DNA of 64,000 bases, taken from Phycisphaerales bacterium (lineage in GTDB: Bacteria; Planctomycetota; Phycisphaerae; Phycisphaerales; UBA1924). A program made the translations under genes and the position numbers. Within the stretch, counting starts at the first letter, position 1. The number at the start of each line of letters is the position of its first letter. Shown here in pieces: positions 6,594-27,350 of this stretch. The DNA lies in contig JAJDDD010000009.1 of assembly GCA_029260495.1 (NCBI GenBank), forward strand, positions 434,266 through 498,265, written 5' to 3'. The notes beneath the pieces were generated by a model. It saw only the letters and a list, made by a program, of their open reading frames with translations. It was not told the origin of the DNA and made no database searches.

Positions 6594-6624
6594 ATCACAA
6601 CCGCTGAAGACGGAGCAGCACTGC

Positions 6625-11027: not shown

Positions 11028-12332
11028 GTGAAGATTGCATATCTCATAAACCGATATCCCGCGGTGAGCCACAGCTTTATCCGTCGAGAGATCGCGGCGC
11101 TCGAAGAGATCGGCGTCGCCGTCGAGCGATTCTCCATCCGCGATTGTGCGCACGAAGTTGTTGATGAGCACGATCGCGAAGAAGCCGCCCGAACACAGGT
11201 TCTGCTCGACAATGGCGTGAGGGGCTTATTGGCGCCGACACTCCGGGCTCTGTTCAAGACGCCGCTCGGATTCATGCGATCGCTCCGTGCTGCAGTTCAA
11301 CTGGGATGGAAATCAGATCGCGGCGTGCTTCGGCATCTCATCTACCTCAGTGAAGCCTGCGCACTCAAAGGACGACTTGCTGAATCCGGCTGTGACCACG
11401 TCCATGCGCACTTCGGCACCAACTCGACTGCGGTCGCCATGTTATGCAGAACTCTCGGCGGCCCCAGCTACAGCTTCACAGCGCACGGACCAGAGGAGTT
11501 TGACAAGCCTCTCCAGATCGGACTGGCGGAAAAGATTCACCACGCTTCATTTGTCGCCGGTGTTTCCAGTTTCGGCAGGTCACAGCTCTACCGCTGGTGC
11601 GCATGGAATGAGTGGCCCAAAATCAAGGTCATCCATTGCGGTGTTGACAACTCATATCTCACGCGGGCCCCGACTCCGGTTCCAGAAGCGTGCACGCTCG
11701 TATGCGTCGGCCGGCTCTGTGAACAAAAAGGCCAAGGCATCCTCATCGAAGCCACAGCCCAACTCGCAGCGCAAAATCACAACCTCGAGTTGGTGCTGGT
11801 GGGTGATGGGCCGATGCGGGGGGGGCTTGAAGAGATGATCGCGAGAAGGGGACTTGCTGATCGCGTGCGCATCACCGGGTGGATGACAGGAAAAGAAGTG
11901 CAGCAGGAGCTGCTGCGTGCGCGCGCCCTGGTGTTGCCGAGCTTTGCGGAGGGGCTCCCGGTGGTAATCATGGAGGCGCTGGCGATGGGCCGCCCTGTCA
12001 TTTCAACATACATCGCAGGGATTCCAGAGCTTGTCGAAGACGGTGTGAACGGCTGGCTGATCCCAGCGGGGGATATAGAACAACTGGCAACCGCGATGCG
12101 GACCGTGATTGACGCGACACCTGAAAAGCTGGGGCGGATGGGCCGCGAGGGTGCGCTCCGTGTTGCAGAACGGCACGATGCGCACAAAGAAGCTCAAAAA
12201 TTGGCGATGTGCTTCACTTGTGCGCTCGGCGCCGACAAGGAAACAGACCATGTGTCCGGTGATGTAGGTCATGAACCCGGGGCGCCCGCCCCGGTGTCGC
12301 AAGCTGGAAAAAGCCTTGGCAGCATGAACTGA
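11028..12332 (+). CDS. GT4 family glycosyltransferase, stp-like. Paralog of 1141..2409.
   Basis: GTG start. KIAYLINRYPAVSHSFIRREIAALEEIGV and HVHAHFGTNS...LGGPSYSFTAHGP motifs mirror the first gene. GT-B C-terminus EALAMGRPVIST. Confidence 0.8.
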   Translation: MKIAYLINRYPAVSHSFIRREIAALEEIGVAVERFSIRDCAHEVVDEHDREEAARTQVLLDNGVRGLLAPTLRALFKTPLGFMRSLRAAVQLGWKSDRGVLRHLIYLSEACALKGRLAESGCDHVHAHFGTNSTAVAMLCRTLGGPSYSFTAHGPEEFDKPLQIGLAEKIHHASFVAGVSSFGRSQLYRWCAWNEWPKIKVIHCGVDNSYLTRAPTPVPEACTLVCVGRLCEQKGQGILIEATAQLAAQNHNLELVLVGDGPMRGGLEEMIARRGLADRVRITGWMTGKEVQQELLRARALVLPSFAEGLPVVIMEALAMGRPVISTYIAGIPELVEDGVNGWLIPAGDIEQLATAMRTVIDATPEKLGRMGREGALRVAERHDAHKEAQKLAMCFTCALGADKETDHVSGDVGHEPGAPAPVSQAGKSLGSMN

Positions 12333-12333
12333 T

Positions 12334-13632
12334 TTGTTGCTTCATCTCATGAACATCTTACTCGCGGTTTGTGCGATTGTGCTTGTGATTCCGATGATGG
12401 TGTACATCATCGAATGCGCTGCTGCGATTGTCCCTCGGCGCGCGCGCAAGTTGGATTCGAACGGGGAGCGAGCTGGAGCGACGATCATTATTCCTGCGCA
12501 CAATGAGGCAGGGTCAATCGAGCGGACGGTTGCGTCTGTACAAGAGGAAATGAGCGCAGCGGATCGGCTCATTGTGATTTCGGACAACTCGACAGATGAC
12601 ACCGCGGCGCGCGCAAGAGAGGCGGGAGCGGAGGTCTTTGAGCGCAATGACGCAGAGAGGCGCGGCAAGGGGTATGCGCTTTCTTTCGGGCTTGATCAGA
12701 TCGCGGTCAATCCGCCTGCAGTTGTCGTGTTTGTTGATGCGGATTGTGAACTTGCGTTTGGAAGTCTCAATGCGCTGGTGCGGCAGGCAACGCGCACAGG
12801 GGCGCCTGCGCAGGGCGTGTATCTGCTCGCGGGCGATGAATCGCCGAGCTCGCGCGAGGCCGTCTCTCGGCTGGCGTTTGTCGTGAAGAATCTGGTGCGT
12901 CCTATGGGGCTCGATCATCTGGAGCTTCCATGTTTGCTTACGGGGACGGGGATGGCGTTCCCGTGGGAGATGATCCGGGCGGCGCCTTTGGCGGGTGGGA
13001 ATATTGTTGAGGATATGCAGCTTGGTATAGATCTTGCGATCGCGGGATCGTCGCCGCGATTGTGCGCCGGAGCGCACATACGGGGCGCCTCGGCGACGAA
13101 TGATGACTCCGCCCGTGCGCAGCGCACGCGGTGGGAGCATGGGCATTTGCGGACGCTTACCTCTCAGGGGCCGCGTCTGGTTCGGGCTGCGGCGATGCAG
13201 GGTCGGGGCGATCTTCTGGCGCTGGCGCTGGAACTCACTGTTCCTCCATTGTCATTGCTTGTGGCGGTCGTGTTTGTTGGGACTGTTCTTGCGACATTTG
13301 CAGCGCTTTTGGGAGCATGGTGGTGGCCGGCGAGTTGGCTTGCATCAGGGCTTGCGGGCGTTGTTGTGGTGACGCTGCTGGCCTGGTGGAAGCATGGTCG
13401 TGCGCACGCGCCGGGACGGGCGCTGCTGGCGGCGCCGGCGTACATCCTGTGGAAGCTCCCGTTGTACGCGAAGTTTTTCGTGAAGCCAGAGACAGAATGG
13501 GTGCGCACCGAGCGCGCGGGTGAGCGCACAAATAATAGAGATGAGAGCGCGGATGCAGCTTCAGCTTCGACGTCTGCCGAGGATGAGTCTTCGCTTGATG
13601 AACCGATCACCGAGCGGAGGGCGGCTTCGTGA
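12334..13632 (+). CDS. Membrane-anchored GT2 family glycosyltransferase (N-terminal TM, central GT-A domain, C-terminal TM helices)
   Basis: IIIPAHNEAGSIERT, VISDNSTDDT and VFVDADCE motifs. TTG start at 12334. An in-frame ATG at 12349 is an equally plausible start. Confidence 0.7.
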   Translation: MLLHLMNILLAVCAIVLVIPMMVYIIECAAAIVPRRARKLDSNGERAGATIIIPAHNEAGSIERTVASVQEEMSAADRLIVISDNSTDDTAARAREAGAEVFERNDAERRGKGYALSFGLDQIAVNPPAVVVFVDADCELAFGSLNALVRQATRTGAPAQGVYLLAGDESPSSREAVSRLAFVVKNLVRPMGLDHLELPCLLTGTGMAFPWEMIRAAPLAGGNIVEDMQLGIDLAIAGSSPRLCAGAHIRGASATNDDSARAQRTRWEHGHLRTLTSQGPRLVRAAAMQGRGDLLALALELTVPPLSLLVAVVFVGTVLATFAALLGAWWWPASWLASGLAGVVVVTLLAWWKHGRAHAPGRALLAAPAYILWKLPLYAKFFVKPETEWVRTERAGERTNNRDESADAASASTSAEDESSLDEPITERRAAS

Positions 13633-14468
13633 TGGGGGCGGTCGTGACAACTGAAGAGAGCGCGACGGCGGCGAAGGCATTAGACGTCTTCGGCGCGGTC
13701 GATTTATGTGGCGTTGTGCTGCACAAGGTGACCGAGCGAGGGTGCATTGATTGGATATTGATTGAGCTGAACTCGGGGCGCGGCGGTTGGGTGGTGACGC
13801 CGAATCTTGAGATTGTGCGGCGTTGTGCGAAGAGCGCCGAAGAGCGCGACCTTGTGGCGCGGGCGGATCTTCGAGTGGCGGACGGGATGCCGCTCATTTG
13901 GGCGAGCCGGGTTCGCGGTGAGGCGCTGCCTGCTCGTGTGGCGGGATCGAGCTTGATATTGACGTTGTCTGAGGCAGCGGCTGCGAGGGGGCGATCGATT
14001 TTTCTGCTGGGGGGCGAGCCTGGGTCAGCGGAGGAGGCTGCGCAGGAGTTGGCGAAGCGCAATAAGGAGTTATCGGTCGTGGGAACTTATTGCCCGCCGA
14101 TGGGCTTTGAGCGCGACGCTGAGGAGATGGCTCGGATTCGGGAGGCGCTTGTCGATGCGAACCCGGACATCGTCTTCGTTGGACTTGGCTTCCCGAAGCA
14201 GGAGCGATTGATCGCGGAGGTCCGAGAACTCCTCCCGCAGGCATGGTGGCTGGGCGTGGGCGTGAGTTTTAGCTTTGTGAGCGGCCATGTGCAGCGGGCG
14301 CCGGGCTGGATGCAGCGGTGCGGCGTTGAGTGGTTGCACCGACTGTCGCAGGAGCCGGGGCGGCTGGCGAGGCGATACCTGATCGACGGAATTCCTTTCG
14401 GGATGCGGCTGATGATCGGCTCGGCAGCGTGTCGATTGAGGGGGAAGCGTCAAGGAGCTGTCCGATGA
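13632..14468 (+). CDS. WecB/TagA/CpsF family (GT26) glycosyltransferase
   Basis: VVTPNLEIVRR...ADGMPLIWASR...IFLLGG...VFVGLGFPKQE matches the WecG/TagA pattern. The start overlaps the upstream stop (GTGATG). Confidence 0.75.
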   Translation: MGAVVTTEESATAAKALDVFGAVDLCGVVLHKVTERGCIDWILIELNSGRGGWVVTPNLEIVRRCAKSAEERDLVARADLRVADGMPLIWASRVRGEALPARVAGSSLILTLSEAAAARGRSIFLLGGEPGSAEEAAQELAKRNKELSVVGTYCPPMGFERDAEEMARIREALVDANPDIVFVGLGFPKQERLIAEVRELLPQAWWLGVGVSFSFVSGHVQRAPGWMQRCGVEWLHRLSQEPGRLARRYLIDGIPFGMRLMIGSAACRLRGKRQGAVR

Positions 14469-14962
14469 GCCTATCTGTGCGAACCATTTCGAGTGCAAGC
14501 TGTTCTGTGGAGGATGCGTACAAGCGCGCGTCTGCGGAAGTGGAGCCGGTGTTTGTTCCTGCGAAGATTTATACGGACGATCGAGGGTGGTCGCTGATGA
14601 ATCAGATGCAGGGTGTGATGCGCCCTGAGGGGCAGCTCAACTACTCGGTGCAGTACCCGGGCGTCATCAAGGCGTGGCATCGGCATGCGAAGCAGACTGA
14701 TTTCTGGATGTGCATCCAGGGGCACATGAAGATGGGCGTGTATCGGGATGATGGCGCCGCGTGGATGTTGGTTTCGGGTGAAAAGAATGCAGGCGTGGTG
14801 ATCGTGCCTCCTACATTGTGGCACGGAGCAGCGACTGTGGGACCGACGAGCGCGGGGCTTCTCTACTTTGTGACGCACGCGTACGACCCGCAGGCGCCCG
14901 ATGAGGAGCGAATGCCATTTGACGAGGTTGAGGGGTTCAACTGGGGTGTTGAGTGTCGCTAG
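14465..14962 (+). CDS. Cupin-fold sugar-nucleotide isomerase/epimerase (RmlC / FdtA-WxcM C-terminal-like)
   Basis: ATGA overlap at 14465. A ~166 aa all-beta protein with KAWHRH...DFWMCIQGHMKMGVY. The family assignment is from memory only. Confidence 0.45.
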   Translation: MSLSVRTISSASCSVEDAYKRASAEVEPVFVPAKIYTDDRGWSLMNQMQGVMRPEGQLNYSVQYPGVIKAWHRHAKQTDFWMCIQGHMKMGVYRDDGAAWMLVSGEKNAGVVIVPPTLWHGAATVGPTSAGLLYFVTHAYDPQAPDEERMPFDEVEGFNWGVECR

Positions 14963-14963
14963 C

Positions 14964-15911
14964 GTGACGAAGGACGACGATGAGACGAACAGTCGCGCGA
15001 AGGAGTGCGCGGTCGTTGCGTGTGTGTTGCTCACGGGTGGATTGCGTCCGTCGCCTCTTGTGACTGCGGCGCGACGGTCGGTGTTGGATCTATTTCTCAC
15101 GCCGGAACGAACGGTATTGGGCGTGTGGCTCGATCATCTTCGGAATCTGAATCATGGATCAGCGGTTCCGTGTCGGATTGTGCATGGGGGCGATGGGCCA
15201 ATGCCTTTCGGCGCGGCGATCGGAGAGGGAGCAGCGGTCACGTTCGAGAAGGAGCATGGTCAATATCGGGGGCCAGCGGGCGCGTTGCGGGATGCTTGCG
15301 GGATGTACGGCGAAGAGGACGTGGTGTTGGTTGCTGACGGGGCGCGGTGGGTTTCGGCGTCGTTGGATGGGTTGGTGGCGGCTCATCGTTCGCATGGCGC
15401 GGATGTGACGGTTGCGGCGAATCCGGATGGCTCGCCGACTGGGGCATACCTATTGAGCCGGCGCGTAATTGACCTGACGCCGACCAAGGGATTCATGGAT
15501 TTGAAAGAGCAGTTGCTCGAGAAAGCGTTGCAGTCCGGGATGAGGATTCGAGTTCACACGCTGGACGGCGGCTCGAAGCCACTGCGAACGAGGAAGCAGT
15601 TTTTGGGGGTGTGCGCGGAAATTGGAAGGCGGGAAGAGCAACGTCCGAAAACTGCTGGAGAGTCTGCGAGGCTGGAGGGGGTGAGTTGGCGTGCTGCTGA
15701 CGGTGAGTTGGGGGCAGGCTGCGTGCTGGTGGACTCTGTGGTGATGCCGGGGGCGGTCGTGGGAGAAGGGGCGGTGGTGGCGAGAACGATCGTTTGTCCT
15801 GGGGCCCGGGTCCAGCCCGGGGCGCGTGTGGTCGATGCTGTTGTGAGCGCGGAAGGTGTAAGATCAGGAGACGAGCGGCCGGCTGTTGGCCGCTGGAAGG
15901 TTCGGTCATGA
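14964..15911 (+). CDS. Nucleotidyltransferase-fold protein with a C-terminal left-handed beta-helix (hexapeptide repeats)
   Basis: A GTG follows 1 nt after the upstream TAG. CAVVACVLLTGGLRPSPL resembles the NTP-transferase G-rich loop. C-terminal VLVDSVVMPGAVVGEGAVVARTIVCPGARVQPGARVVDAVV hexapeptides. Confidence 0.5.
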   Translation: MTKDDDETNSRAKECAVVACVLLTGGLRPSPLVTAARRSVLDLFLTPERTVLGVWLDHLRNLNHGSAVPCRIVHGGDGPMPFGAAIGEGAAVTFEKEHGQYRGPAGALRDACGMYGEEDVVLVADGARWVSASLDGLVAAHRSHGADVTVAANPDGSPTGAYLLSRRVIDLTPTKGFMDLKEQLLEKALQSGMRIRVHTLDGGSKPLRTRKQFLGVCAEIGRREEQRPKTAGESARLEGVSWRAADGELGAGCVLVDSVVMPGAVVGEGAVVARTIVCPGARVQPGARVVDAVVSAEGVRSGDERPAVGRWKVRS

Positions 15912-16774
15912 TCCAGCGTCGGGCGTGGAGATTTTCGGACGGTGTGCTGCTCGCAGCGTTGGTGGGGCTGGCGATCGTTGCGACCCGTGAGATATGGCGC
16001 GATATCTTTCGTATTGGTTGGCACAACGAAGAGCAGTCGCACATTCTGCTGGCGCCGTTGATCGCGCTGTGGTTGATGTGGGTGCGTCGGGAGCGGCTGC
16101 GATTCTGCAGGCCGTGCTGGACGTTGCTCGGGCCGTTGGTTGTTGGCGTGGGTTGGGCGCTGGCGTGGTATGGGTTTCATGGATCGACGACAGTCTTTTG
16201 GCATTTCGGGGCTCTGCTGATTGTCGCGGGGGCGGCGATTACGGTGGTGGGGGTTGAGTTTGTTCGGAACTTTGCGCCGGCGATGATTGCGTTGGTGTTC
16301 TTGATGCCGGTTCCTGGGGATATCCGCGGGGACATCGCGGTGCCATTGCAGAAGGTGACAGCGACGGTGACGCAGTTCGGGATGGAGCTTTTTGGCGTGC
16401 CGGTGACACGGGCGGGGAATCAGTTGTCTTTGAACGGGCAGGATGTCGCGGTGGCCGAGGCGTGTAATGGGATGCGCATGGTGGCGGCGCTGGTGCTGGT
16501 GAGTTTTGCGTTTGTGTTTTCGACTCCGATGCGGCAGGGGGTTCGCATATTTATTCTTGCGATTAGTCCGCTGGTTGCAATTGTGTGCAATGTGATTCGC
16601 CTGGTGCCGACGGTGTTGCTTTATGGATATTCGAGCAAGGACGCGGCGGACACATTCCATGATGTGAGCGGGTGGGCGATGCTGTTCGTTGCGCTGGGGA
16701 TTTTGTGGGGTATTTTCGGCGTTCTGCGATGGATTGAGATTCCGATTACGCCGTATGCAGTGGCGGAGGAATAG
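15908..16774 (+). CDS. Exosortase (Xrt family transpeptidase for PEP-CTERM proteins)
   Basis: ATGA overlap at 15908. 8 TM helices. VAVAEACNGMRMV carries the conserved exosortase Cys. A conserved Arg/Asn-containing segment lies downstream (NVIRLVPTV). Confidence 0.8.
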   Translation: MIQRRAWRFSDGVLLAALVGLAIVATREIWRDIFRIGWHNEEQSHILLAPLIALWLMWVRRERLRFCRPCWTLLGPLVVGVGWALAWYGFHGSTTVFWHFGALLIVAGAAITVVGVEFVRNFAPAMIALVFLMPVPGDIRGDIAVPLQKVTATVTQFGMELFGVPVTRAGNQLSLNGQDVAVAEACNGMRMVAALVLVSFAFVFSTPMRQGVRIFILAISPLVAIVCNVIRLVPTVLLYGYSSKDAADTFHDVSGWAMLFVALGILWGIFGVLRWIEIPITPYAVAEE

Positions 16775-17470
16775 ATGGGCACAAGCAGGTGGTACAACGT
16801 GTTTGGTCGGGTAGCGCCGGGGGCGAGCGCTGTGATTCTCGGAGCGGTTTTAGTTGTCGGGGGGATTGATGCGGAGTCTTTGCCGGGAGCGGGGAAGTAT
16901 CACAAGGCGGTGAAGGTGGCGATCGAGGGTGTGCCTTACCGGATTGGGCAGTGGGTGGGGACGGACGTGGACACGCCGATTGAGGCGGTCAAGCTGCTGC
17001 GGCCGAATGAGATTTTGCATCGCCGGTTTGTGAATACGACGACCAACGAGACGGTGGCGCTGCTTGTTGTGCATTGCACGGACACCAATGACATGTTGGG
17101 GCACTACCCGCCACAATGCTACCCGGCGCACGGCTGGAGACGGGAAGGCACACAGCAAACGACGCTGGAGTTTGAGGATCAGCTTTATCCAGCGACGGAG
17201 TACGAGTTCAATCGGATGGTGCAGGGGCGCGAACAGCGTATGAGCGTGTTCAGTTTTTTTGTGCTGCCTGATGGATCGATCGTGGCGGATATGAAAGGAT
17301 TGAAGAGCGCATCGGGGCGGAAGTCGGCTTCGCAGCTTGGCGCTGCTCAGGTGCAGATTGTCGGTGGAGAAGACTTGCCGGCGGAGAAGCGCAGGGAAAT
17401 CGTGCATGAGTTTGTGCGTGCGATAGAGCCGACGATCCGAGTAGTCGCGGAGGGGATCAAGAATGGATAA
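16775..17470 (+). CDS. EpsI-like exosortase-associated protein
   Basis: ATG directly after the exosortase stop. Signal-anchored ~230 aa protein in the position EpsI occupies next to XrtA. The family call rests on position and size. Confidence 0.5.
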   Translation: MGTSRWYNVFGRVAPGASAVILGAVLVVGGIDAESLPGAGKYHKAVKVAIEGVPYRIGQWVGTDVDTPIEAVKLLRPNEILHRRFVNTTTNETVALLVVHCTDTNDMLGHYPPQCYPAHGWRREGTQQTTLEFEDQLYPATEYEFNRMVQGREQRMSVFSFFVLPDGSIVADMKGLKSASGRKSASQLGAAQVQIVGGEDLPAEKRREIVHEFVRAIEPTIRVVAEGIKNG

Positions 17471-19667
17471 GTTTTTAATGAATGGCCAGGCTTCTGCGGA
17501 AGGCGGAGGCGAGGCGCCTGAAAACCTGCTGCATGTGGTGCATCGGCGGCTGCGCGGACGGTATCCGTGGGCGATTGCGCTTGGGCTGGTTCTGTCGCTG
17601 CCGTTCGCGGCGCTGGGATGGAAAGCGAAGCAGCCGGAGTTTCGGAGCACGGGTTTGGTTAATGTTGAAGATCAGGCTGAGTCGGTGCTTTTTGCAGATG
17701 TTCATACTCCGATCCGTCGGTTTGACACATTCGTGAACAAACAAGCGACGTTCCTTCGCGGGCGACGCGTAATTGACAAAGCGGTGGAGAATGAGGAGCT
17801 CCTGGATGTTGGTTGGCCACAGGGTCAGGAGGGCATTCGCCTGCTTCAAAAGAAGCTGTCGATCGGGTATGCGCGCGGGGAGTCATTGATCAGTGTCAAT
17901 GTTTCGCATCCGGACCCGACGATGGCGCGGATAGCGGTGAATGCGGTTCTGGACGCTTACAATGAGCTGTTCGGCGAGACAGGCGCGCTGCGAGCGACTG
18001 AAAAGGAACGCACGCTCCAGGAGCGCGAGCGGAAGCTCCTCAATGAAATTTCGGCGCTGCAAAGGCAGAAAATCGCCCTTTCCGAAGAGTTCGGCCAAGA
18101 CCAGCTAAGCACCATGCATGCGCGCAAGGTGGAGGAGCTCAGTGAAATTGATCGGGAAATGTCGCGCGTTGATGTCGCGATCAGCGAAGCGGAGCTACGC
18201 GATGAAGATGAGCAGAGTCGTGAGTCGCAGATCGCGAGCGTTGTTGAGACATTGTCCGAGCGTGATCCGGTGTTGAACACGTTGCAGCGTGACCTTGAAA
18301 CGCTGAGGGCTCAGTACGCGGGGCTGACAAATCTGGGCGAGAGGCATCGAACGAAGCGGCGTCTTCGCACTGAAATCGAGGTTAAACAGGCGCAACTTCA
18401 GAATCGATTTGACGAGTTGATTGAACAGGCTGGGGAGATGGGACAGTCTGAGCTTGGGACATTGCAGTTGCAGACGCCGCAACGGCTGCAGGCGTATCGC
18501 GAGCGGCTGATCGAGCGTCAGGAGGCCGTGCGCAATGACGCAAGCGAGCTGAACAAGAAACGACTTGAGCTGGACTTGATCAGCGAACAGATCGCGGAGA
18601 AAACGAAGATTCGGCTGTTGACAACCCAGCGGCTCGATCAACTTCGTGTTGAGCGCGAAAGCAGAACTGAGGGTCATGTGACCATCGCGCAGCACGGCGA
18701 CATTCCGGTGGACATCGAGGACAAGCGCAAGATGTTTGCAGCAATTGGCGCTATGTTTGGTGGCGGACTTGGCGTGGGGATCGTCTTTCTCCTTGGTCTG
18801 TTTGATAGCAGGCTGCGGTATATCGACGATCTTGAGCGAGAGGCGCTCGCCGTGCCATTGCTTGGCACGCTTCCTGATCTGGGATCGAAGAATCTTGAGC
18901 ATGATGAAATCGCGGCGCTAGCTGTGCATAATCTGCGCAATATGTTGCAGCTTCAGGCGTCTCCCGGGGACGGCAATTGCAGGGTGTATACGATCACGAG
19001 CGGTTCGCCGGGTGACGGCAAGACAAGTCTGGCGCTGGCGATGGGGATGTCGTTTGCATTGTCAGGACAAAAGACGCTGCTCCTGGACGCCGACCTGGTT
19101 GGGCATGGACTCACGCACGAGCTTGGGCATGATGGGGCGCAGGGATTGTGCCAGGCGGTGCGGGAAGAGGATGCGAAGACGCACATTCAGAGTACGACTA
19201 TTGAGAATTTGTGGACACTTCCGTGTGGCAGGCAAAATGTGATCGACGCGAAAAACCTCTCGCAGGAGATGATGCAGCATGTGATCGGGCAGTTGCGCCA
19301 GGAGTACGACACGATTATCGTGGACACGGGGCCGCTTCTTGGCAGTCTGGAGGCGAACTTGATGGCATCATTGTCCGACGGAGTCGTGCTGACGATCTCG
19401 CGTGGGCAGAACCATAAGTTTGTCAACGCCTGTCTAGAGAGGTTGCGGCAGATGAACGCGAAATGCGCGGGGCTGGTCTTCAACAAGGCGGAGGCGAGGG
19501 ATTTCAATCGGAGCGTGAGCGCTGCTTCAGTGTGTTCGCAGTCGATTCGGAATCAGTCGCTTCTGGATAAGTCTGCCAATGCGCCGGAGCGTAACGCGCG
19601 CGGCGCGTTGGTGCGGGCAGTGATCGGCGGACCTTCAGACGCCAATGAGGAAAAGCCGGCGGCGTGA
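17463..19667 (+). CDS. GumC/Wzc-like polysaccharide co-polymerase (chain-length determinant) with a C-terminal P-loop ATPase (BY-kinase-like) domain
   Basis: N-terminal TM, long coiled-coil periplasmic region and a second TM. Walker A TSGSPGDGKTS, A' LLLDADL and B IIVDTGPLL. No C-terminal tyrosine cluster. Confidence 0.75.
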   Translation: MDKFLMNGQASAEGGGEAPENLLHVVHRRLRGRYPWAIALGLVLSLPFAALGWKAKQPEFRSTGLVNVEDQAESVLFADVHTPIRRFDTFVNKQATFLRGRRVIDKAVENEELLDVGWPQGQEGIRLLQKKLSIGYARGESLISVNVSHPDPTMARIAVNAVLDAYNELFGETGALRATEKERTLQERERKLLNEISALQRQKIALSEEFGQDQLSTMHARKVEELSEIDREMSRVDVAISEAELRDEDEQSRESQIASVVETLSERDPVLNTLQRDLETLRAQYAGLTNLGERHRTKRRLRTEIEVKQAQLQNRFDELIEQAGEMGQSELGTLQLQTPQRLQAYRERLIERQEAVRNDASELNKKRLELDLISEQIAEKTKIRLLTTQRLDQLRVERESRTEGHVTIAQHGDIPVDIEDKRKMFAAIGAMFGGGLGVGIVFLLGLFDSRLRYIDDLEREALAVPLLGTLPDLGSKNLEHDEIAALAVHNLRNMLQLQASPGDGNCRVYTITSGSPGDGKTSLALAMGMSFALSGQKTLLLDADLVGHGLTHELGHDGAQGLCQAVREEDAKTHIQSTTIENLWTLPCGRQNVIDAKNLSQEMMQHVIGQLRQEYDTIIVDTGPLLGSLEANLMASLSDGVVLTISRGQNHKFVNACLERLRQMNAKCAGLVFNKAEARDFNRSVSAASVCSQSIRNQSLLDKSANAPERNARGALVRAVIGGPSDANEEKPAA

Positions 19668-21109
19668 ACTCGCTGCACGAGAGCGTGGTGATGCATCAGA
19701 GGCCGGCTGAAATTTCAGCGGATCGGTGGTCACGCGCCCATACTCGAGTGTGGGGGCTTTCCATTGAGGAAACCCATGATCGTTATTGGGCTTCCAAAGG
19801 CGTGCAGGTTGTGCGGCCTGGCGGGGCGGCGGTGATTGGCCGGGGCCCGATGCTGTACCTGCTTCTTCGGCGTGGCGAGCTGGTGCTGTTCAAATTCGCA
19901 CCTGTGGTCAAGCGGCTGAACTGGATTCGATCGCGCGCGATGCGTTTACGGATCGTTGATCTGGACGCGGACTCCTATGTTGAGCGGGTGATTGCAGATG
20001 ATGATGGCGGATTTATTGCGATTCGCAGGGACTACAGCGTCGAGACGCACGGCTCGACGCGCGCCGCGGTCACAGGCGAAGCAAAGCTTGCGCGGCAGTG
20101 GCGCGATGCGGACAACGCGCGGGAGGGATGGCGAGCGATTGTTGCGCGAGCGGGGGCGGATCGGACGAGTGTGCATCGTTGCGTGGGGCGGATATTTGAC
20201 GCTGAGGATGATGAATCGCTTGAAGAGTGTCTGACAAGCCTGATGCAGCGGTGGAAAAATCCAACGCTGGGTTTGGATGGCGTTTATGAGTTCATGCCTG
20301 GCGTTCTTTTGCATGAGTCTGCGGAAGTTGAATCTGGAGCAGTGCTGCTGCCTCCGGTGTGGATTGGAGCCGGTTCGCGCATTGGTGGACAGGCGGTGGT
20401 CGTTGGGCCAACTCTTACGCCCGATGAGCCTGATGCCCAGCCAACACAGCGGGAAGTATCGTGGGAGCGGATTCAGTATCCCGGTTGGCGTCCGACACCG
20501 AGGTTGCGCGGGCGATGGTTCCGCATGAGCAAGCGCGTGTTTGATATTGGTTTCAGCCTTGCGGTGCTCGCGGCAACGGCGCCGATCTATCCAATCGCAA
20601 TCGCGTTGATTTTTCTGGAGGATGGGTGGCCGCCCTTTTTTGCGCACAGGCGGCAGACACGGCGGGGGCGAACGTTTCCGTGCTACAAGTTTCGCACGAT
20701 GTCTCGCGGGGCGGATTCAATGAAGGAGGAACTGGAAGCGAGCAATGTCTGCGACGGGCCGCAGTTCTATATAGAGGTAGACCCGCGTGTGTCGAAGGTT
20801 GGCAAGTGGCTTCGGCGGTTTCAGATTGATGAACTACCACAGTTTTGGAATGTGTTGCGCGGGCATATGAGCGTCGTTGGGCCGCGCCCGAGCCCGGACA
20901 GTGAAAATCAGTATTGTCCTGCGTGGCGTGAGGCGAGGCTGAGCATTCGGCCTGGTGTGACGGGCCTGTGGCAGGTGCGGCGCACGCGGGAGCCTGCGAC
21001 GGATTTTCAGGAGTGGATTCGGTATGACCTTGAGTACGTTCAGCATGAGAGCTGGCGTCTGGACCTTTGGATCATTCTCAAGACGATTGGGAAGGTCATC
21101 AAGAGCTAG
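19664..21109 (+). CDS. Priming sugar-1-phosphate transferase (bacterial sugar transferase family, WbaP/EpsE-like) with an atypical ~285 aa soluble N-terminal domain
   Basis: GTGA overlap start. The C-terminal ~195 aa (RVFDIGFSLAVL...KFRTM...DELPQFWNVLRGHMSVVGPRP) is the conserved catalytic domain. The N-terminal domain has no TM helices and an LbH-like stretch. Confidence 0.8.
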   Translation: MNSLHESVVMHQRPAEISADRWSRAHTRVWGLSIEETHDRYWASKGVQVVRPGGAAVIGRGPMLYLLLRRGELVLFKFAPVVKRLNWIRSRAMRLRIVDLDADSYVERVIADDDGGFIAIRRDYSVETHGSTRAAVTGEAKLARQWRDADNAREGWRAIVARAGADRTSVHRCVGRIFDAEDDESLEECLTSLMQRWKNPTLGLDGVYEFMPGVLLHESAEVESGAVLLPPVWIGAGSRIGGQAVVVGPTLTPDEPDAQPTQREVSWERIQYPGWRPTPRLRGRWFRMSKRVFDIGFSLAVLAATAPIYPIAIALIFLEDGWPPFFAHRRQTRRGRTFPCYKFRTMSRGADSMKEELEASNVCDGPQFYIEVDPRVSKVGKWLRRFQIDELPQFWNVLRGHMSVVGPRPSPDSENQYCPAWREARLSIRPGVTGLWQVRRTREPATDFQEWIRYDLEYVQHESWRLDLWIILKTIGKVIKS

Positions 21110-21118
21110 GAACGAGCT

Positions 21119-24100
21119 ATGACGAATCGGGCGAAAAAAAGACTTTTGCTGTTGGGTGTGTCGGTTGTCATCGCGGGCGGCGGCGTGGTGGGATTGCAGC
21201 AACTGCGCAATATACAGTCTGCGCGCACACTGAAGTCGAATTTTGAAGAAGGGATGGCGGCGCACGAAGCAGGGCGTCATAAAGATGCCTCTACAAAGCT
21301 CTGGTATTATGTGACTGTCGCGCAGTCGGACGACGTGGATGGTGAAGCTCTGCTCGCGTTTGTCGAGAGTCGCCGGCAGACACCGGACGAGAACGGAAAG
21401 CATTTGCTTGAATCAATCCTGGTGGCGAAACGCGCAAGGGATTTAATGCCGAGCGACGTGCGGCCGCTTGAGCATTTGCTTGCGCTATATGGCATAACAG
21501 GGCAGTTTTCGGAACGGCTGGACGCTGCGAACCGATTGCTCGCGATTGATGACAAAAATTACGAAGGGATGAAGGCGAAGATCTCGTCATTTTGGCGATT
21601 GGGCGAGCGTGATCAAGCTCTCCAGGTTGCGCAGTCGATGGCGGAGGTGTACGAGGATGACATTTTTGCGCATTCCTTGGTCTTGCAGCTTTATGAGGAT
21701 CTCGACAAGCCAAAGCGCGAAATGCTGGATTATGCGCAAGCGGTCTCGAAGAAATACCCGGACGATGCGCGATTCACACTTCTTGTCGCGCAGGTGCACG
21801 CGGCTGCGAATGAAGATCAGAAGGCGAGGGAGATCGCGCAACAGGCTCTTGGGATGGATATTTCCGACGCGGTGACATTGCGGGAGTTGCTGCTCGTGCT
21901 CGACCGGCTCGGTATGACCGCTGAGGCGGCGGCGGTGATTGACCGAGAGACGGCGAAGGAAGGTGTGAGTGATGAGTTCTATGCGATCGCTGCGGAGCGG
22001 GCGTGGAAGGAGTCGCGCATCTCGAAGTCGCTCGAGTACATCAGGCGGGCGTCAGTTGATCCGGAGTCGGCCAAGGATAACGTCCTGGGATGGCGGGCGT
22101 TCCTTGAACAAGGAGCGACGGATGTAAGCGAGCGTGAGAGTATTGTTGAAATTCTGCGCGGGCGGGGAACTCCGGAGGCAGCGACGTGGATTTCATTGCT
22201 TCGGGCGCAGGATGCGATGGCGCAAAGCGATTGGGCGTTAGCGCAGGAGGAGCTGCGCACAGCGCAGACGACAGATGATGGAAACTCGCTCGCCATCTAC
22301 ATGATGGGTGAGACTGAGCGCCGGCTGGGCGAGTGGCGGGCCGCGATTGAGCGCTGGGGTGAGCTGCGCAAGACCGAGCCAACGTGGGTTCGCTTGCATG
22401 TTGATTTGGCCTCTGCGCTGCTCGACCATGAGTTCCCTGCTGAGGCGTACATCATCGCGGCGCGTGGGGCGCAGGTGGCGCCGAACCAGGTTGTGATGGC
22501 GCCTGTGCTCGCGCGGGCTTCTATGGAAGTGATCGAGCGCCAGATATTGACGGGAACGGAAGCTGAAACTCCGCTGGCGTTTCTTGAAGAGCTACGAGAG
22601 AAGCTTCCTCCATCGGGATTTGTACAGTCGCTTTTGGCGCGGGCGTATGCAGCTTTAGACAGGCCGGCCGAAGCGAAGGAGGCCATTGAAGTTATTTTCA
22701 AGAACGATCTTGAGGCGCCATCTGACTCGCTGGGGCCGCTCCTTGCGATGAACAAACGGTATGAATGGGGGTTTGCCGAGCAGATTCGTGCGGTGAGTCC
22801 GGAATCGCCCGCGAGTGTATTTACGCTGGCGATCGAGGCGCACCAGGCAGGTGACACGAAGGCAGGAATGCGCATGTTGCGCAATGCGGTCGAGTCGCAC
22901 GAAGGCGGCGAGCGGCTGGCGTATGAGCTTCGTCTCGCGGCGTATCAGGATCTTGTAGATGCGCCAGAGGCATTGGAGAATTTGAGCCGGATCGGCGCGG
23001 ACAACCCACAGTCAGCTGAAGCGCAGCGGCTGGTGCTCAACTCACGGGCGGCCTGGCGGGATGAAAAGATCGTCAGCTCCGCGATCGCGAGCTTGCGGAA
23101 TCTGGCTGGGAACAAGTCATCGCTCTGGCGCGTCGCGGAAGCGCGGCGACTGTTGACGTTTAGCGATCCGAACAATCCGAACGATCGGCAGGACAAGGCT
23201 GCCCGCGTCGTCAACGACGTATTGAAATCGGTCATTACGAATGATCCGCGGGCAGGGCGGGCGCATGAGCTTGCTGCTGAAGCCTGGCTTATTCTTGATG
23301 AACGCAATAACGCGATCCATCACCTGGAGCTTGCGCTCGCGGCCCAGCGCGATGCGATACGTCTGTATCCAAAGCTGATTTCACTCTTTCAGCAAGCAGG
23401 CGATGCGGAAGGCGCAAAGCGGTATCTTCAGAAGTTTTCACAGCAAACAAACATCACTCCTGAAATGCAACGACGGCGAGCTGCGCTGCTCGTTTCGCAG
23501 AACATGATTGATCCAGCGATGGATGATTTTCGCAGCCTGGCGCAGGCGGGCGACGTGAGAGCACAGGTTTCGCTGGCTGCATTGCACTCTCGCCTGGGTG
23601 AGGTCGGTCAGGCAAGAGAGATGTACGAGCAGGCGCTGAGGCATGATGACGAGTTGGCGCCTTTTGTCGCGGAAGCTGCTGCGGAGTATTTTGCTTCGCA
23701 AGGCGAGATGGATCGAGCGCGCAGCATTTTGACCGAACATCTCAAGGATGCGGGACGCGAGGGGATGCTGGCCGCGCTGCTCATGAGGCACGGTCTTGCC
23801 GGTGAAGCTGAAGATATTTACACCCGCTTGGCGCAGTCTGAAAACTCGGGGGCAGCATGGAGCGATCTTGCCCGATTCTACCTTTCACAGCGGCGCGTCG
23901 ATGAGGCAGAGCAGGCAATTAGCCAGGGGCTTGCCGTAGCGCCTGATGATGAAAATCTTATACACACAGCGAGCATGGTGTCCATGGCGGGCGGTGAGGA
24001 GATCGCAGCAGAGGGGCTCTCTGATGCGCTGACCGCGTTTGGACTCGATCCGGACAGTCGCTCGGGCATCGCGCTTCAGGAGGCGCTGGATCATATCCAG

Positions 24101-25297
24101 GCGAACCCGACGGACCTTGACGGCTACATTGACCGGCTGCGTCGACTGGTGGAGCGAGATGCGACGTTTTATCCAGCCTGGCAGATGCTTGTGCAAGCCC
24201 ATATGCGCAAGGGTGATGTTCCCTCGGCGCTGGAGGTTGCGCAGTCCGCGACTCAATCACTTCCAGCTGACCCACGTCCGGCGAAAATGGTGACCGAGCT
24301 TCTCATGCGCCAAGGGCGCACGGATCAGGCGATTGCAGCGGCGAAACTGTGGCGCGAACGCGCGCTTGCGAATCCGTACCCCACCGATCTGCTAATTGCG
24401 CAGTTGAATGACCGAATGGGTCGTTATGAGGAAGGACTTGGATGGCTGGCGCCCTACCGTGATCGGATTATTCGTGAAGGAGACACGGCGCCGACGCCTC
24501 TTGAGTTGCTCGCATCGTTGCACGCAGGAGCCGATCAAGAGGAGATTGCTCTTGAGTTGCTTTGGGATCGGGCCCAGGAAAGTCAAGCGTGGCGGGGAGG
24601 GTACCTCCGCGCCGGCTATCGCATGTTTGATCGCCCGGCCGAGGCACGGGAGTGGTTTGAGCGCGTGACGCCGCTCATGCTCAGCACAACTTCAGAACGA
24701 ATCGCGATGGGGCGGGCTTGGTATGACCTTGGCGTGCAGCATGTGACCAGAGAGGACTTCCAGCGCACGGTGGACATCGTTGAGCCGGCGCTGGATGATC
24801 CGGACGCGCGTGGGGCGGCTGCGGCGTTTTGTGCTGCGTGCTATGAGCAACTGAATCAGCCGGAAGAAGCGGAGCGGCTGTATCGGGTTGCAATCAGTGA
24901 AAATCCGGGCCAGGCGGATCTCAAAAACAATCTTGCGTTTCTGATTCTGACGCAGGGCGGCTCGCTGGAAGAGGCGTTGGCGCTCGCGACGAGCGCGACA
25001 GAATCCTCGTTGAACATCGCGACGTTCTTCGATACGAAAGGGCAGGTGCTGTTCAAACTCGGGCGGGCGGAGGAAGCTGAGACAGCGTTCCGCCAGGGGC
25101 TGGAGATTGATCCGGCGGATCCCTTGCTCCTGATCGGCCTGGCGGAAGCGTTGCATGCGCAGAAGGAGTTCGGCGAAGCGCAGCGCGTGCTTTCGCTGCT
25201 TGAAGCCATGAACAACTTTCGGTCCGGGCTGAGCGGTGATCTGACTGCTCGCTACAACAGTGTGAAGAGTCAACTTCGCGCCAGTGGGGGGGATTGA
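21119..25297 (+). CDS. Very large TPR-repeat protein (1392 aa) with an N-terminal signal anchor. PrsT-like PEP-CTERM-system TPR protein.
   Basis: AGGAA RBS. KKRLLLLGVSVVIAGGGVVGL anchor. Repetitive A/L/E/R-rich TPR-like helices throughout. Sits adjacent to the exosortase core. Confidence 0.7.
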   Translation: MTNRAKKRLLLLGVSVVIAGGGVVGLQQLRNIQSARTLKSNFEEGMAAHEAGRHKDASTKLWYYVTVAQSDDVDGEALLAFVESRRQTPDENGKHLLESILVAKRARDLMPSDVRPLEHLLALYGITGQFSERLDAANRLLAIDDKNYEGMKAKISSFWRLGERDQALQVAQSMAEVYEDDIFAHSLVLQLYEDLDKPKREMLDYAQAVSKKYPDDARFTLLVAQVHAAANEDQKAREIAQQALGMDISDAVTLRELLLVLDRLGMTAEAAAVIDRETAKEGVSDEFYAIAAERAWKESRISKSLEYIRRASVDPESAKDNVLGWRAFLEQGATDVSERESIVEILRGRGTPEAATWISLLRAQDAMAQSDWALAQEELRTAQTTDDGNSLAIYMMGETERRLGEWRAAIERWGELRKTEPTWVRLHVDLASALLDHEFPAEAYIIAARGAQVAPNQVVMAPVLARASMEVIERQILTGTEAETPLAFLEELREKLPPSGFVQSLLARAYAALDRPAEAKEAIEVIFKNDLEAPSDSLGPLLAMNKRYEWGFAEQIRAVSPESPASVFTLAIEAHQAGDTKAGMRMLRNAVESHEGGERLAYELRLAAYQDLVDAPEALENLSRIGADNPQSAEAQRLVLNSRAAWRDEKIVSSAIASLRNLAGNKSSLWRVAEARRLLTFSDPNNPNDRQDKAARVVNDVLKSVITNDPRAGRAHELAAEAWLILDERNNAIHHLELALAAQRDAIRLYPKLISLFQQAGDAEGAKRYLQKFSQQTNITPEMQRRRAALLVSQNMIDPAMDDFRSLAQAGDVRAQVSLAALHSRLGEVGQAREMYEQALRHDDELAPFVAEAAAEYFASQGEMDRARSILTEHLKDAGREGMLAALLMRHGLAGEAEDIYTRLAQSENSGAAWSDLARFYLSQRRVDEAEQAISQGLAVAPDDENLIHTASMVSMAGGEEIAAEGLSDALTAFGLDPDSRSGIALQEALDHIQANPTDLDGYIDRLRRLVERDATFYPAWQMLVQAHMRKGDVPSALEVAQSATQSLPADPRPAKMVTELLMRQGRTDQAIAAAKLWRERALANPYPTDLLIAQLNDRMGRYEEGLGWLAPYRDRIIREGDTAPTPLELLASLHAGADQEEIALELLWDRAQESQAWRGGYLRAGYRMFDRPAEAREWFERVTPLMLSTTSERIAMGRAWYDLGVQHVTREDFQRTVDIVEPALDDPDARGAAAAFCAACYEQLNQPEEAERLYRVAISENPGQADLKNNLAFLILTQGGSLEEALALATSATESSLNIATFFDTKGQVLFKLGRAEEAETAFRQGLEIDPADPLLLIGLAEALHAQKEFGEAQRVLSLLEAMNNFRSGLSGDLTARYNSVKSQLRASGGD

Positions 25298-25349
25298 AAA
25301 TGTTATTCGTGGGGCGCATTGATTGTTGCTGTGTTTTCGGAAGGAGTCG

Positions 25350-26123
25350 ATGATGAAGGGTGTCATCCTGGCGGGCGGGCTTGGAACCAGGCTGCGCCCG
25401 CTGACGCTTGTGACGAATAAGCATCTGCTGCCGATCTACGATCGGCCGATGATCTACTATCCGATTCAATGCCTGCTGAACGCGGGGATTGATGAAATCC
25501 TTCTGGTGACTGGTGGTGAGCACGCGGGAGACTTTCTCAAGCTCCTTGGCAATGGGAAATCGCTTGGCATCAAGGAACTGCACTACACCTATCAGGAAGG
25601 TGAAGGAGGCATTGCTGATGCGTTGTCGCTGGCGGAAGACTTTGCAGACGGTGGAAAGATTGTCGTAATTCTGGGTGACAACATTATCGAACGCAATATC
25701 GCGCGGGCGGCAGAGGACTTCTCCACGCAGGCAACCGGCGCCAAGATTCTGTTGAAGGAGGTCGCTGATCCTGAGCGGTTCGGCGTCGCGCGGGTTGAGG
25801 GCGAACGAGTGGTGGAGATCGTTGAAAAGCCCGAAAACCCAGCATCGCGCCTCGCGGTGACAGGCATTTATATGTACGACAACACCGTTTTTCAGATCGT
25901 TCGCGGCGTTAATCCCAGCGATCGCGGAGAGCTTGAGATAACGGACGTTAATAATGCGTATATCAAGCGAAGCGATATGACGTACGAAACGATGGCTGGC
26001 TGGTGGACGGACGCAGGGACGTTCCAGAGCCTCTACCGGGCGAATCAGATGGTCGCTGAGGGCGGAGCCAATCATATGGATGCGGCGGCGCCCAAGGCGG
26101 GGAAGGCAGCGTCGATAGCATAA
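25350..26123 (+). CDS. Glucose-1-phosphate thymidylyl/uridylyltransferase-like sugar nucleotidyltransferase (RmlA-like short form)
   Basis: GGAAGGAG RBS then ATGATG. MKGVILAGGLGTRLRPLT...KHLLPIYDRPMIYYPI is the canonical RmlA N-terminus. Confidence 0.8.
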   Translation: MMKGVILAGGLGTRLRPLTLVTNKHLLPIYDRPMIYYPIQCLLNAGIDEILLVTGGEHAGDFLKLLGNGKSLGIKELHYTYQEGEGGIADALSLAEDFADGGKIVVILGDNIIERNIARAAEDFSTQATGAKILLKEVADPERFGVARVEGERVVEIVEKPENPASRLAVTGIYMYDNTVFQIVRGVNPSDRGELEITDVNNAYIKRSDMTYETMAGWWTDAGTFQSLYRANQMVAEGGANHMDAAAPKAGKAASIA

Positions 26124-26197: not shown

Positions 26198-26570
26198 ATG
26201 CGCACAAATCCATTGGCGGGTTCTCGGACATACGAACCATGTTGGCAAGTGAAAACAATCGACTGATAACAAAGATGTTGCACAACTGCGCGCACTGGCG
26301 CTGGACGTTCACTGGGGCGCGTATATCTCTTGGGCAGCGCAGGTAAGAGAGTTGTCAACTTTATCAGAGGCCCCTGTGGGAATAGCGAATCTGGCGCGAA
26401 TATGCCGGCGCTGAATCTGCAAGAGGCTGGCGAAACGGTTGACCACTCTCAGCCCTGGTGTACTTAGAAGTAAGTGACTGACTTTCGGCGAGCGTCACCG
26501 ACTCATGCTCGCTTCATGTATTTCTGATCCCGTTTACCGGCGCTGTGTCGCCCGAGTCGGACGGGGAGCA

Positions 26571-27350
26571 ATGGAGAAGTTAGAAATGAAAAATGGGATC
26601 ATTCTTAGTGTTGGAGCGGCTGCACTGCTTGCCTCTGCGGGCGCTGCGCAGGCTGCGACCGCGAGCATCGACGGTCTTGGTGGCGAAGTTCAGATCGTGT
26701 CCGGCGTTATTGACGGCGTGTTCGGCACATCGTCGCCCGATATGTCGCCCAGCGCCCTTGCGAACATCCATGGAACGCTGATGGATGACGGCATTGAGAC
26801 GAATGGCAAGGTCACCAGCGTTTTCCTCGAAACCGATAACGGGCTCGCATGGGTCATTCTCGTTGACAAGCAACTCTTTGGCGACGACGATCGCGGTGGC
26901 CCCGCGGCGAGCCTTCTCTTCGCGAGCACAGCTGACGGCGATAAAGATCCCTTCATCAACGATGATGAAGAAATGGAAATCGCAGTGTTCGGCGGTGGAC
27001 TTCAGGCCGCCAATGGTCAGTTCAACTGGAACTCCGATGGTGAGGGCGATGGCTTCGCCTGGGCTGGTCTTGAGCCTGGTGACTTCATGACCTTCCAGTT
27101 CGAGGAAATCAAAAGCATCACCACACAGCGCGGCGGAACGGCTCCAACCTCCCCGGGTCTGGACAGCACCGATACGTTCCAGTTCGCCTCATGGACGGGC
27201 GATTCATTCGAACTGATGCCTGACATGGGCAGCTTCTCGATCGACAATCAGTTCGCTTACAGCGTGACGATTCTTCCGCTGCCGCAGCCCGCGATGCTCG
27301 GCCTGGCGGGTCTGGCCGGCCTCGGCGTGATCCGCCGTCGCAAGGCCTGA
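26571..27350 (+). CDS. Secreted PEP-CTERM domain protein (putative exosortase substrate), acidic and Asp/Gly-rich
   Basis: Signal peptide MKNGIILSVGAAALLASAGAAQA. C-terminus TILPLPQPAMLGLAGLAGLGVIRRRKA is a P-x-P motif, hydrophobic helix and Arg cluster. An alternative start is 26586. Confidence 0.75.
   Translation: MEKLEMKNGIILSVGAAALLASAGAAQAATASIDGLGGEVQIVSGVIDGVFGTSSPDMSPSALANIHGTLMDDGIETNGKVTSVFLETDNGLAWVILVDKQLFGDDDRGGPAASLLFASTADGDKDPFINDDEEMEIAVFGGGLQAANGQFNWNSDGEGDGFAWAGLEPGDFMTFQFEEIKSITTQRGGTAPTSPGLDSTDTFQFASWTGDSFELMPDMGSFSIDNQFAYSVTILPLPQPAMLGLAGLAGLGVIRRRKA

Follow-up and report, generated by a model that had tools for sequence, protein, structure and literature searches.

A monotopic phosphoglycosyl transferase fused to a predicted nucleotidyltransferase-like domain in an exosortase locus of Phycisphaerae

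The locus described here raises the question of what a soluble N-terminal domain of unfamiliar sequence contributes to a priming sugar transferase encoded among exosortase genes. The gene lies within a 64,000-nucleotide stretch of DNA from a Phycisphaerales bacterium (GenBank assembly GCA_029260495.1, contig JAJDDD010000009.1, positions 434,266 to 498,265 of the forward strand), which we refer to in its entirety as the window and whose numbering we use throughout. It encodes a 481-residue protein in which an N-terminal domain, hereafter the N-domain, precedes a monotopic phosphoglycosyl transferase (PGT). The explanation that we favor, with somewhat better than even confidence, is that a pseudo-nucleotidyltransferase N-domain serves this PGT as a non-catalytic regulatory or adaptor module of the exosortase locus core. 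The gene and its parts are as follows.

19664..21109, + strand: fusion gene, N-domain plus monotopic PGT, 481 aa, stop included (from the list of open reading frames)
19745..20278, + strand: alpha/beta part of the N-domain, residues ~28-205, a divergent, motif-less nucleotidyltransferase-like fold
20279..20419, + strand: short left-handed beta-helix (LbH) stub, residues ~206-252 (Hexapep match, modelled strands 207-252, ST0452 alignment)
20420..20512, + strand: linker, residues 253-283 (low model confidence, residue conservation)
20513..20623, + strand: predicted re-entrant membrane helix, residues 284-320 (full-length model, hydropathy, WbaP/PglC alignment)
20624..21106, + strand: PGT catalytic core, residues 321-481 (PF02397, invariant columns, TM-score against PglC)

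The GTG start of the gene shares 4 nt with the stop of the upstream gene (17463-19667), and an identical 481-aa protein (P0001) is found in a public NCBI assembly on a 793-kb contig. The original prediction had considered that a frameshift might conceal two separate genes. We observed one intact open reading frame (ORF) in the window, and the N-domain and PGT form a single unbroken ORF in 76 of 78 homologous loci, which rules out that an assembly error or a frameshift had joined two genes artificially. The two remaining loci carry a frameshift (L030) or an in-frame stop (L049) between the two parts, splits that could be assembly errors in metagenome-assembled genomes, pseudogenes or natural splits.

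The C-terminal half of the protein is a bacterial sugar transferase domain, as had been predicted for its last ~195 residues. PF02397 (bacterial sugar transferase, Bac_transf) matches residues 290-480 over the entire profile with an E value of 7.6e-58 (195.4 bits, against a cutoff of 27). The same half aligns to Salmonella enterica WbaP (8t53) at 7.6e-34 and to C. concisus PglC (8e37) at 1.3e-24, and these alignments run from a basic K-R-x-F-D motif across the hydrophobic helix and up to the C-terminus. Likewise, a full-length AlphaFold2 model compared with PglC gives TM-scores of 0.68-0.72, normalised to PglC. The catalytic Asp-Glu pair D389-E390 (DELPQ; nt 20828-20833) is invariant among 36 family members, as are GPRP 406-409 and PGxTGLWQ 430-437, and all three motifs line up with those of WbaP. 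The NCBIfam models for WbaP, WcaJ and EpsZ (TIGR03022/03023/03025) and TIGR03013 match the C-terminal ~195 residues only, all under their full-length cutoffs; TIGR03013 (EpsB_2, the XrtA/PEP-CTERM sugar transferase) scores 140 bits against a cutoff of 393 and matches residues 287-478 alone.

A Kyte-Doolittle scan with a 19-residue window reveals a sole hydrophobic stretch at residues ~295-320, exceeding 1.4 only at centres 301-311. It is preceded by a basic stretch, RLRGRWFRMSKR, that starts at residue 280 and continues into the membrane helix. The original prediction had read this region as a single transmembrane helix, a reading that has to be revised: in the full-length model, residues 284-305 form a helix, A306-P307 a break and residues 308-320 a second helix. 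Because of this helix-break-helix arrangement, the invariance of P310 and the alignment to the re-entrant regions of WbaP and PglC, we assign the segment as the predicted re-entrant membrane helix of monotopic PGTs, an element formerly mis-assigned as a transmembrane helix (PMC10312794). K290-R291 are ~90% conserved among the same 36 family members. All three of the defining features of the monotopic PGT superfamily are present, the re-entrant helix as a prediction, and the protein belongs to it. A re-entrant helix would anchor the core (residues ~284-481) in the inner leaflet, and we therefore infer that the N-terminal ~255 residues sit on the cytoplasmic face beside the active site.

The first ~285 residues were predicted to be free of membrane helices and unlike those of WbaP, and both claims held. 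The Kyte-Doolittle maximum over residues 1-285 is 1.22, with no hydrophobic segment, the model of this region is a soluble alpha/beta structure lacking any hydrophobic helix, and PF13727 (CoA_binding_3) finds no match. An ordinary WbaP-type large PGT was rejected on the absence of both a four-helix bundle in residues 1-285 and PF13727. The protein shares with the large monotopic PGTs (WbaP, WcaJ, EpsZ and the XrtA-associated TIGR03013) its catalytic core, the possession of an N-terminal cytoplasmic accessory domain and an operon role as the priming enzyme adjoining a Wzc-like kinase. It differs from them in having neither the four-helix transmembrane bundle nor PF13727, and in an accessory fold that resembles a nucleotidyltransferase (NTase) with an LbH rather than the domain of unknown function (DUF) of WbaP, an N-terminal accessory domain to which a nucleotide-sensing regulatory role has been assigned (PMC10312794).

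We found no Pfam or NCBIfam family that covers residues 1-210. A word-indexed search returned 38 clusters, every one of 427-499 aa and carrying PF02397, and an exhaustive profile search returned 407 representative clusters at E<=1e-3, 141 of them at E<=1e-30. The domain is described neither in Pfam-A (2025 copy) nor in NCBIfam 20.0. Conservation was computed across 80 species genomes. Positions conserved at 95% or more are mainly Trp, Arg and Gly and comprise G31, H38, R40, W42, A43, R/K45, G46-V-Q-V-V-R51, L66, L67, W87, R96, E107, R122, Y124, T137, A143, W146, W197, W215, W233, G235, G237, G248, P249, D254 and W267. The LbH stub contributes an invariant W233-x-G235-x-G237 and G248-P249, and the linker, whose predicted local distance difference test score (pLDDT) is about 50 at residues 271-285, contributes an invariant D254 and a W267 that is specific to the fused form. 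At residue 215 (nt 20306-20308), the window protein has Leu where 96% of the 80 family members have Trp; L215 is a lineage-specific substitution at a near-invariant position where the LbH stub begins. The conserved D/E-rich core that the original prediction had seen did not survive this comparison. Its DDD (112-114) and DAEDDESLEE (179-188) runs are specific to the window, and only E107 (99%) and D112 (80%) are conserved acidic residues between positions 100 and 200.

The predicted structure points to an origin for this domain. An AlphaFold2 model of the N-domain built from a 27-sequence alignment (pLDDT 86.6, predicted TM-score 0.80) shows an alpha/beta domain at about residues 30-205 followed by four to six short strands at 207-252. 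When the model was compared with Foldseek against PDB libraries only, all of the top 50 matches were sugar-1-phosphate nucleotidylyltransferases, most of them with a left-handed beta-helix tail; they include tlr0611, GMPPA/GMPPB, VTC1/KJC2, eIF2B gamma/epsilon, RmlA, GlmU and ST0452. The best E value is 3.7e-8, yet the TM-scores are only 0.25-0.38. Searches of PDB sequences with phmmer and hmmsearch gave sub-threshold matches to the NTase/LbH junction of ST0452 (E 0.03-0.2) and to tlr0611 (E 0.08), and these sequence matches, though sub-threshold, are concordant with the fold result. The hexapeptide-like segment proposed originally also stands: Hexapep matches residues 214-246 below threshold (E 4.4e-5 to 1e-4), and the segment is modelled as short beta-helix strands and aligns to the first LbH turns of ST0452. 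From the predicted structure, and not from significant sequence homology, we conclude that the N-domain is probably a remote, minimised relative of the NTase-plus-LbH architecture. Thus, the remote-homology check on residues 1-285 returned a fold resembling that of sugar-1-phosphate nucleotidylyltransferases with an LbH.

GMPPA, Arabidopsis KONJAC (KJC) and eIF2B gamma/epsilon are non-catalytic paralogues of this architecture. In structure they come closest to the N-domain, and they share with its predicted fold an alpha/beta NTase-type part that leads into an LbH; a shared regulatory or scaffolding role is, for the N-domain, a working hypothesis only. The N-domain differs from them in its much smaller size, its N-terminal lobe being cut short and its LbH reduced to a stub, in lacking significant sequence similarity to them, and in being bacterial and tethered to a membrane enzyme.

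Does the N-domain retain the activity that its predicted fold would suggest? No NTP_transferase (PF00483), GT-A or acyltransferase family was detected in it by Pfam, NCBIfam, hhalign or a permissive scan. The GxGxR(L) signature for binding nucleoside triphosphate (NTP) is absent from the window protein and from the conserved positions of the 80 species. An hhalign comparison with the family of the RmlA-like NTase encoded in the same locus gave no significant match (probability 0.07%). The locus also encodes a divergent NTase-plus-LbH protein at 14901-15911, the 'LbH-tail' protein, and profile comparisons of the N-domain with its family were likewise not significant (4 sequences; 62 sequences; probability 1.7%), while in BLASTP the hexapeptide region alone matches, at E 0.047. 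In this weak profile alignment, a strand at 64-67, a helix at 78-88 and a strand at 92-99 are placed on the 'vlvADG - helix - strand' core, with the variable residues 68-72 at the position of the metal-binding Asp. The segment before that core is about 60 residues long in the N-domain versus roughly 140 in the aligned NTase-like relative.

These results bear directly on the proposal that the N-domain works as a sugar-1-phosphate nucleotidylyltransferase, making an NDP-sugar donor and channelling it to the fused PGT. The NTase-like predicted fold speaks for such an enzyme, as do the conserved polar residues Y105, E107, R122, Y124 and T137 on strands equated with the sugar-binding lobe. Y105, E107, R122 and Y124 fall on consecutive strands, and we infer their correspondence to that lobe from secondary-structure order alone. 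Against this enzyme stand the missing GxGxR/K signature, the lack of any Pfam, NCBIfam or hhalign match to an NTase, the shortened segment before the core, the loss of Y105 and Y124 in the stand-alone copies described below, and the bona fide RmlA-like NTase encoded apart at 25323-26123, and we consider the proposal improbable. A GT-A glycosyltransferase that adds a second sugar, as in a classical bifunctional PGT, seems more improbable still. An extra domain on a PglC-like core is what such an enzyme would look like, and at the level of sequence neither a glycosyltransferase family match nor a DxD motif conserved across the 80 species was found; the 50 best Foldseek matches, all NTases, contain no GT-A enzyme, an LbH stub behind the domain is typical of NTases, and at least eight separate glycosyltransferase (GT) genes are already present in the locus.

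Neisseria PglB, an example of the bifunctional class, joins a PGT to an LbH acetyltransferase. An LbH acyltransferase fusion of this type was rejected here. The permissive scan of 27 members (E<=1) returned nothing but the sub-threshold Hexapep match, in 10 of the 27 at residues ~214-246 and at 22-23 bits against the Pfam cutoff of 27; no multi-coil LbH was found, the stub is too short, and one stand-alone member lacks it. The weak Hexapep match and the frameshift or stop in two of 78 loci are the only observations that would favor an ordinary WbaP-type large PGT, a PglB-type fusion or an artefact of assembly, and, with each refuted by the tests that we ran, we give these almost no credence.

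Bifunctional monotopic PGTs have been defined as a PglC-like core with an extra soluble domain at one terminus (PMC11626204, PMC10312794). The protein described here has the same core with a re-entrant helix and a soluble cytoplasmic domain fused at one terminus. It differs in that its N-domain is an NTase-like pseudo-fold with no recognisable catalytic family or motif, and in that the same operon slot can also hold the N-domain as a protein of its own. The protein is neither a large (WbaP-type) nor a small PGT, and the bifunctional class fits only loosely, because the extra fused domain shows no catalytic signature. Taken together, the evidence appears to weigh against catalysis by the N-domain. 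Of the two roles originally suggested for it, a fused nucleotide-sugar-modifying or regulatory module, the regulatory one fits better; the relation to nucleotide-sugar enzymes stands by fold, and the modifying option finds neither a catalytic family nor a GxGxR motif.

The fusion gene occupies a fixed place among its neighbours. The other genes of the locus, all on the + strand of the window, are the following.

1141-3758, + strand: two GT4 glycosyltransferases
3617-5203, + strand: Wzx-type flippase
5223-6593, + strand: polytopic membrane protein, no family
6496-7884, + strand: GT4 glycosyltransferase
7903-9971, + strand: two GT2 glycosyltransferases
11028-13632, + strand: GT4 and GT2 glycosyltransferases
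13629-14468, + strand: WecG-family transferase
14901..15911, + strand: LbH-tail protein, 336 aa, divergent GMPP/AGPase-like NTase plus LbH (man1P_GTase C-terminal match, 3.7e-10)
15794-16774, + strand: exosortase (PF09721, 3.4e-51; TIGR02602 over cutoff)
16775-17470, + strand: EpsI (DUF3485/EpsI)
17463..19667, + strand: Wzc-like polysaccharide co-polymerase/tyrosine autokinase (TIGR01007, 3.6e-25; AAA_31)
21119..25297, + strand: PrsT-like tetratricopeptide repeat (TPR) protein, 1392 aa (TIGR02917, 1.6e-43, under its cutoff)
25323-26123, + strand: RmlA-like NTase, complete
26505-27350, + strand: secreted protein, PEP-CTERM-like tail, 281 aa

A scan of species-representative genomes found an N-domain relative in 166 genomes, nearly all labelled Phycisphaerae, Phycisphaerales or Planctomycetota, and the listed records are all metagenome-assembled. 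We fetched 80 loci and counted neighbours wherever at least 5.5 kb of flank was available on the relevant side. Of the 80, 78 have a PGT domain after the N-domain, and the other two stop at a contig edge. Among 63 loci, same-strand upstream genes include the LbH-tail gene in all 63, the kinase in 58, the exosortase in 58 and EpsI in 50; the fusion thus recurs in exosortase loci of related genomes, a point on which the original prediction had called for a survey. The first gene upstream encodes the kinase co-polymerase in 65 of 73 loci, the TPR gene lies downstream in 49 of 71, and gene order is the same in three homologous loci inspected individually. This context (exosortase, EpsI, PrsT-like TPR protein) is analogous to that of the XrtA/PEP-CTERM system.

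We also found the N-domain without a PGT. A search from a single stand-alone member returned only itself, and an alignment-based search found the others. Several representatives of 253-287 aa terminate 15-30 residues past an 'ILWD' motif, and two stand-alone copies (L085:1374-2180 and L086:436-1236) are complete genes with a kinase-type gene upstream; the former, whose flank is of sufficient length for the identification, also has a TPR gene downstream. A 9.5-kb contig reads EpsI, kinase, 265-aa N-domain protein, 1396-aa TPR protein and ABC-2 permease. A 31-kb contig (L087) reads exosortase, EpsI, kinase, 191-aa N-domain protein, TPR, Wzm, Wzt, methyltransferase, GT2 and GT4; its N-domain protein (10001-10576) has no beta-helix stub, and neither a monotopic PGT nor an LbH-tail gene is present in the 20.6 kb examined. 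In all, four loci, including the P0204 contig, have a stand-alone N-domain (191-268 aa) flanked by the tyrosine-kinase co-polymerase and the giant TPR protein, and ABC-transporter genes come next in two of the four, as Wzm alone or as Wzm plus Wzt. These copies occupy the same gene slot as the fusion, and the N-domain is therefore a separable module, one that is constantly accompanied by the kinase co-polymerase and the TPR protein rather than by the PGT. The stand-alone forms retain G31, H38, D39, W42, R45, G46, V50, R51, L67, W87, R96, R133, T137, A143, W146, W197, P200, W233, G235 and D254, lack R40, A43, Q48, Y105, Y124 and W267, and keep E107 and R122 in about half of the sequences. The fused-specific residues Y105, E107, R122 and Y124 may form a ligand pocket or a cis-interface with the PGT core.

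In the explanation that we favor, the PGT core would put the first sugar-1-phosphate on polyprenyl phosphate for a Wzx/Wzy-type exopolysaccharide pathway embedded in the exosortase locus. Its N-domain would be a strongly diverged, minimised relative of NTase-plus-LbH proteins such as GMPP, GlmU and eIF2B gamma/epsilon in which the signature for NTP binding is gone and little of the beta-helix remains. Acting as a regulator or adaptor with no catalysis of its own, it would tie priming to a conserved core of exosortase, EpsI, tyrosine-kinase co-polymerase, N-domain and giant TPR protein. It could do so by binding to the product of a flanking gene, the kinase or the TPR protein, or through sensing of a nucleotide or sugar-phosphate ligand in a remnant pocket, resembling the nucleotide-sensing accessory domain of WbaP. 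The fused N-domain would hold the priming PGT at that machinery or control its activity. A second precedent for control of this kind, besides that WbaP domain, is Myxococcus xanthus EpsW, which activates the monotopic PGT EpsZ in the first step of a Wzx/Wzy exopolysaccharide pathway (PMC12802240). Both cases pair a soluble cytoplasmic module with a monotopic PGT of such a pathway, with control by the N-domain being proposed. However, EpsW is a separate, phosphorylated receiver domain that acts in trans on a large PGT, whereas the module described here is NTase-like in predicted fold and usually fused in cis.

A more specific version of this explanation places the N-domain among the core subunits of an exosortase machine of Phycisphaerae type, docked on the kinase co-polymerase, the TPR protein or both; the fused form would then physically hold the start of glycan synthesis at the complex for export and sorting, possibly under the control of a nucleotide-sugar ligand. 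We put this version forward tentatively, as possible rather than probable. Somewhat less likely in our view is that the N-domain pairs with the LbH-tail protein in the manner of GMPPA/GMPPB or KJC/VTC1, coupling the supply or sensing of nucleotide sugar to priming. The presence of the LbH-tail gene upstream in all 63 fused-type loci counted argues for such a pair, and heteromeric NTase-plus-LbH pairs of precisely this sort are what the N-domain resembles best in structure. Matches of the LbH-tail family profile in the PDB point the same way (VTC1, 5.4e-4; GMPPA, 2.1e-3; AGPase and eIF2B gamma also matched). However, the N-domain and LbH-tail families share no significant profile similarity, and L087, the sole long stand-alone locus, has no LbH-tail gene within 20 kb and an N-domain without the stub. 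The LbH-tail protein, which has a degenerate 'LLxGGLR' motif where GGxGxR is expected, may be a partner of, or supplier for, the PGT.

Several further observations concern the surrounding genes. The LbH-tail ORF call overlaps that of the exosortase by about 118 nt, and the true exosortase start is therefore probably later than 15794. The exosortase passes the generic TIGR02602 model (129 bits, cutoff 105.55) and reaches the cutoff of no named subtype (XrtA, 130.6 versus 208); it may represent an unnamed, Phycisphaerae-specific subtype. The 281-aa protein encoded at 26505-27350 has a signal-like hydrophobic segment at its N-terminus and the tail ILPLPQPAMLGLAGLAGLGVIRRRKA with a variant 'PLPQP' motif, and it gives a single weak PEP-CTERM match (EDSAP-1, E 2.6e-4). 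Judged by its sequence, it is a likely exosortase substrate, the tail being a PEP-CTERM-like sorting signal. Several of the glycosyltransferases match Myxococcus Eps models, under cutoffs. Two ORFs of about 460-476 aa each lack a Pfam match: that at 5223-6593 has roughly ten hydrophobic segments, and its product is a candidate Wzy-type polymerase, and that at 9590-11020 (+), with one hydrophobic region only and no NCBIfam match either, is unassigned.

Monotopic PGTs gate entry to bacterial glycoconjugate pathways, and their regulation, through the WbaP accessory domain or through EpsW and EpsZ, is an active question. The fusion family adds an accessory architecture of a third kind, distinct both from a four-helix bundle with a DUF and from a fused catalytic enzyme, and it is conserved across at least 166 species-level genomes of Phycisphaerae and Planctomycetota at a fixed position in an exosortase/PEP-CTERM-type cluster. 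The N-domain is a clean candidate for a new Pfam or NCBIfam family, and the existence of stand-alone copies in the same slot offers a direct way to look for its partners. The finding should be of use to PGT and exosortase specialists and offers a directly testable hypothesis, although no categorical surprise. The mechanism that links polysaccharide synthesis to protein sorting in exosortase/PEP-CTERM systems is likewise a question in the field, and the tethering of the PGT through its N-domain, if true, would connect the priming of polysaccharide directly, by structure, to the sorting of proteins by the exosortase.

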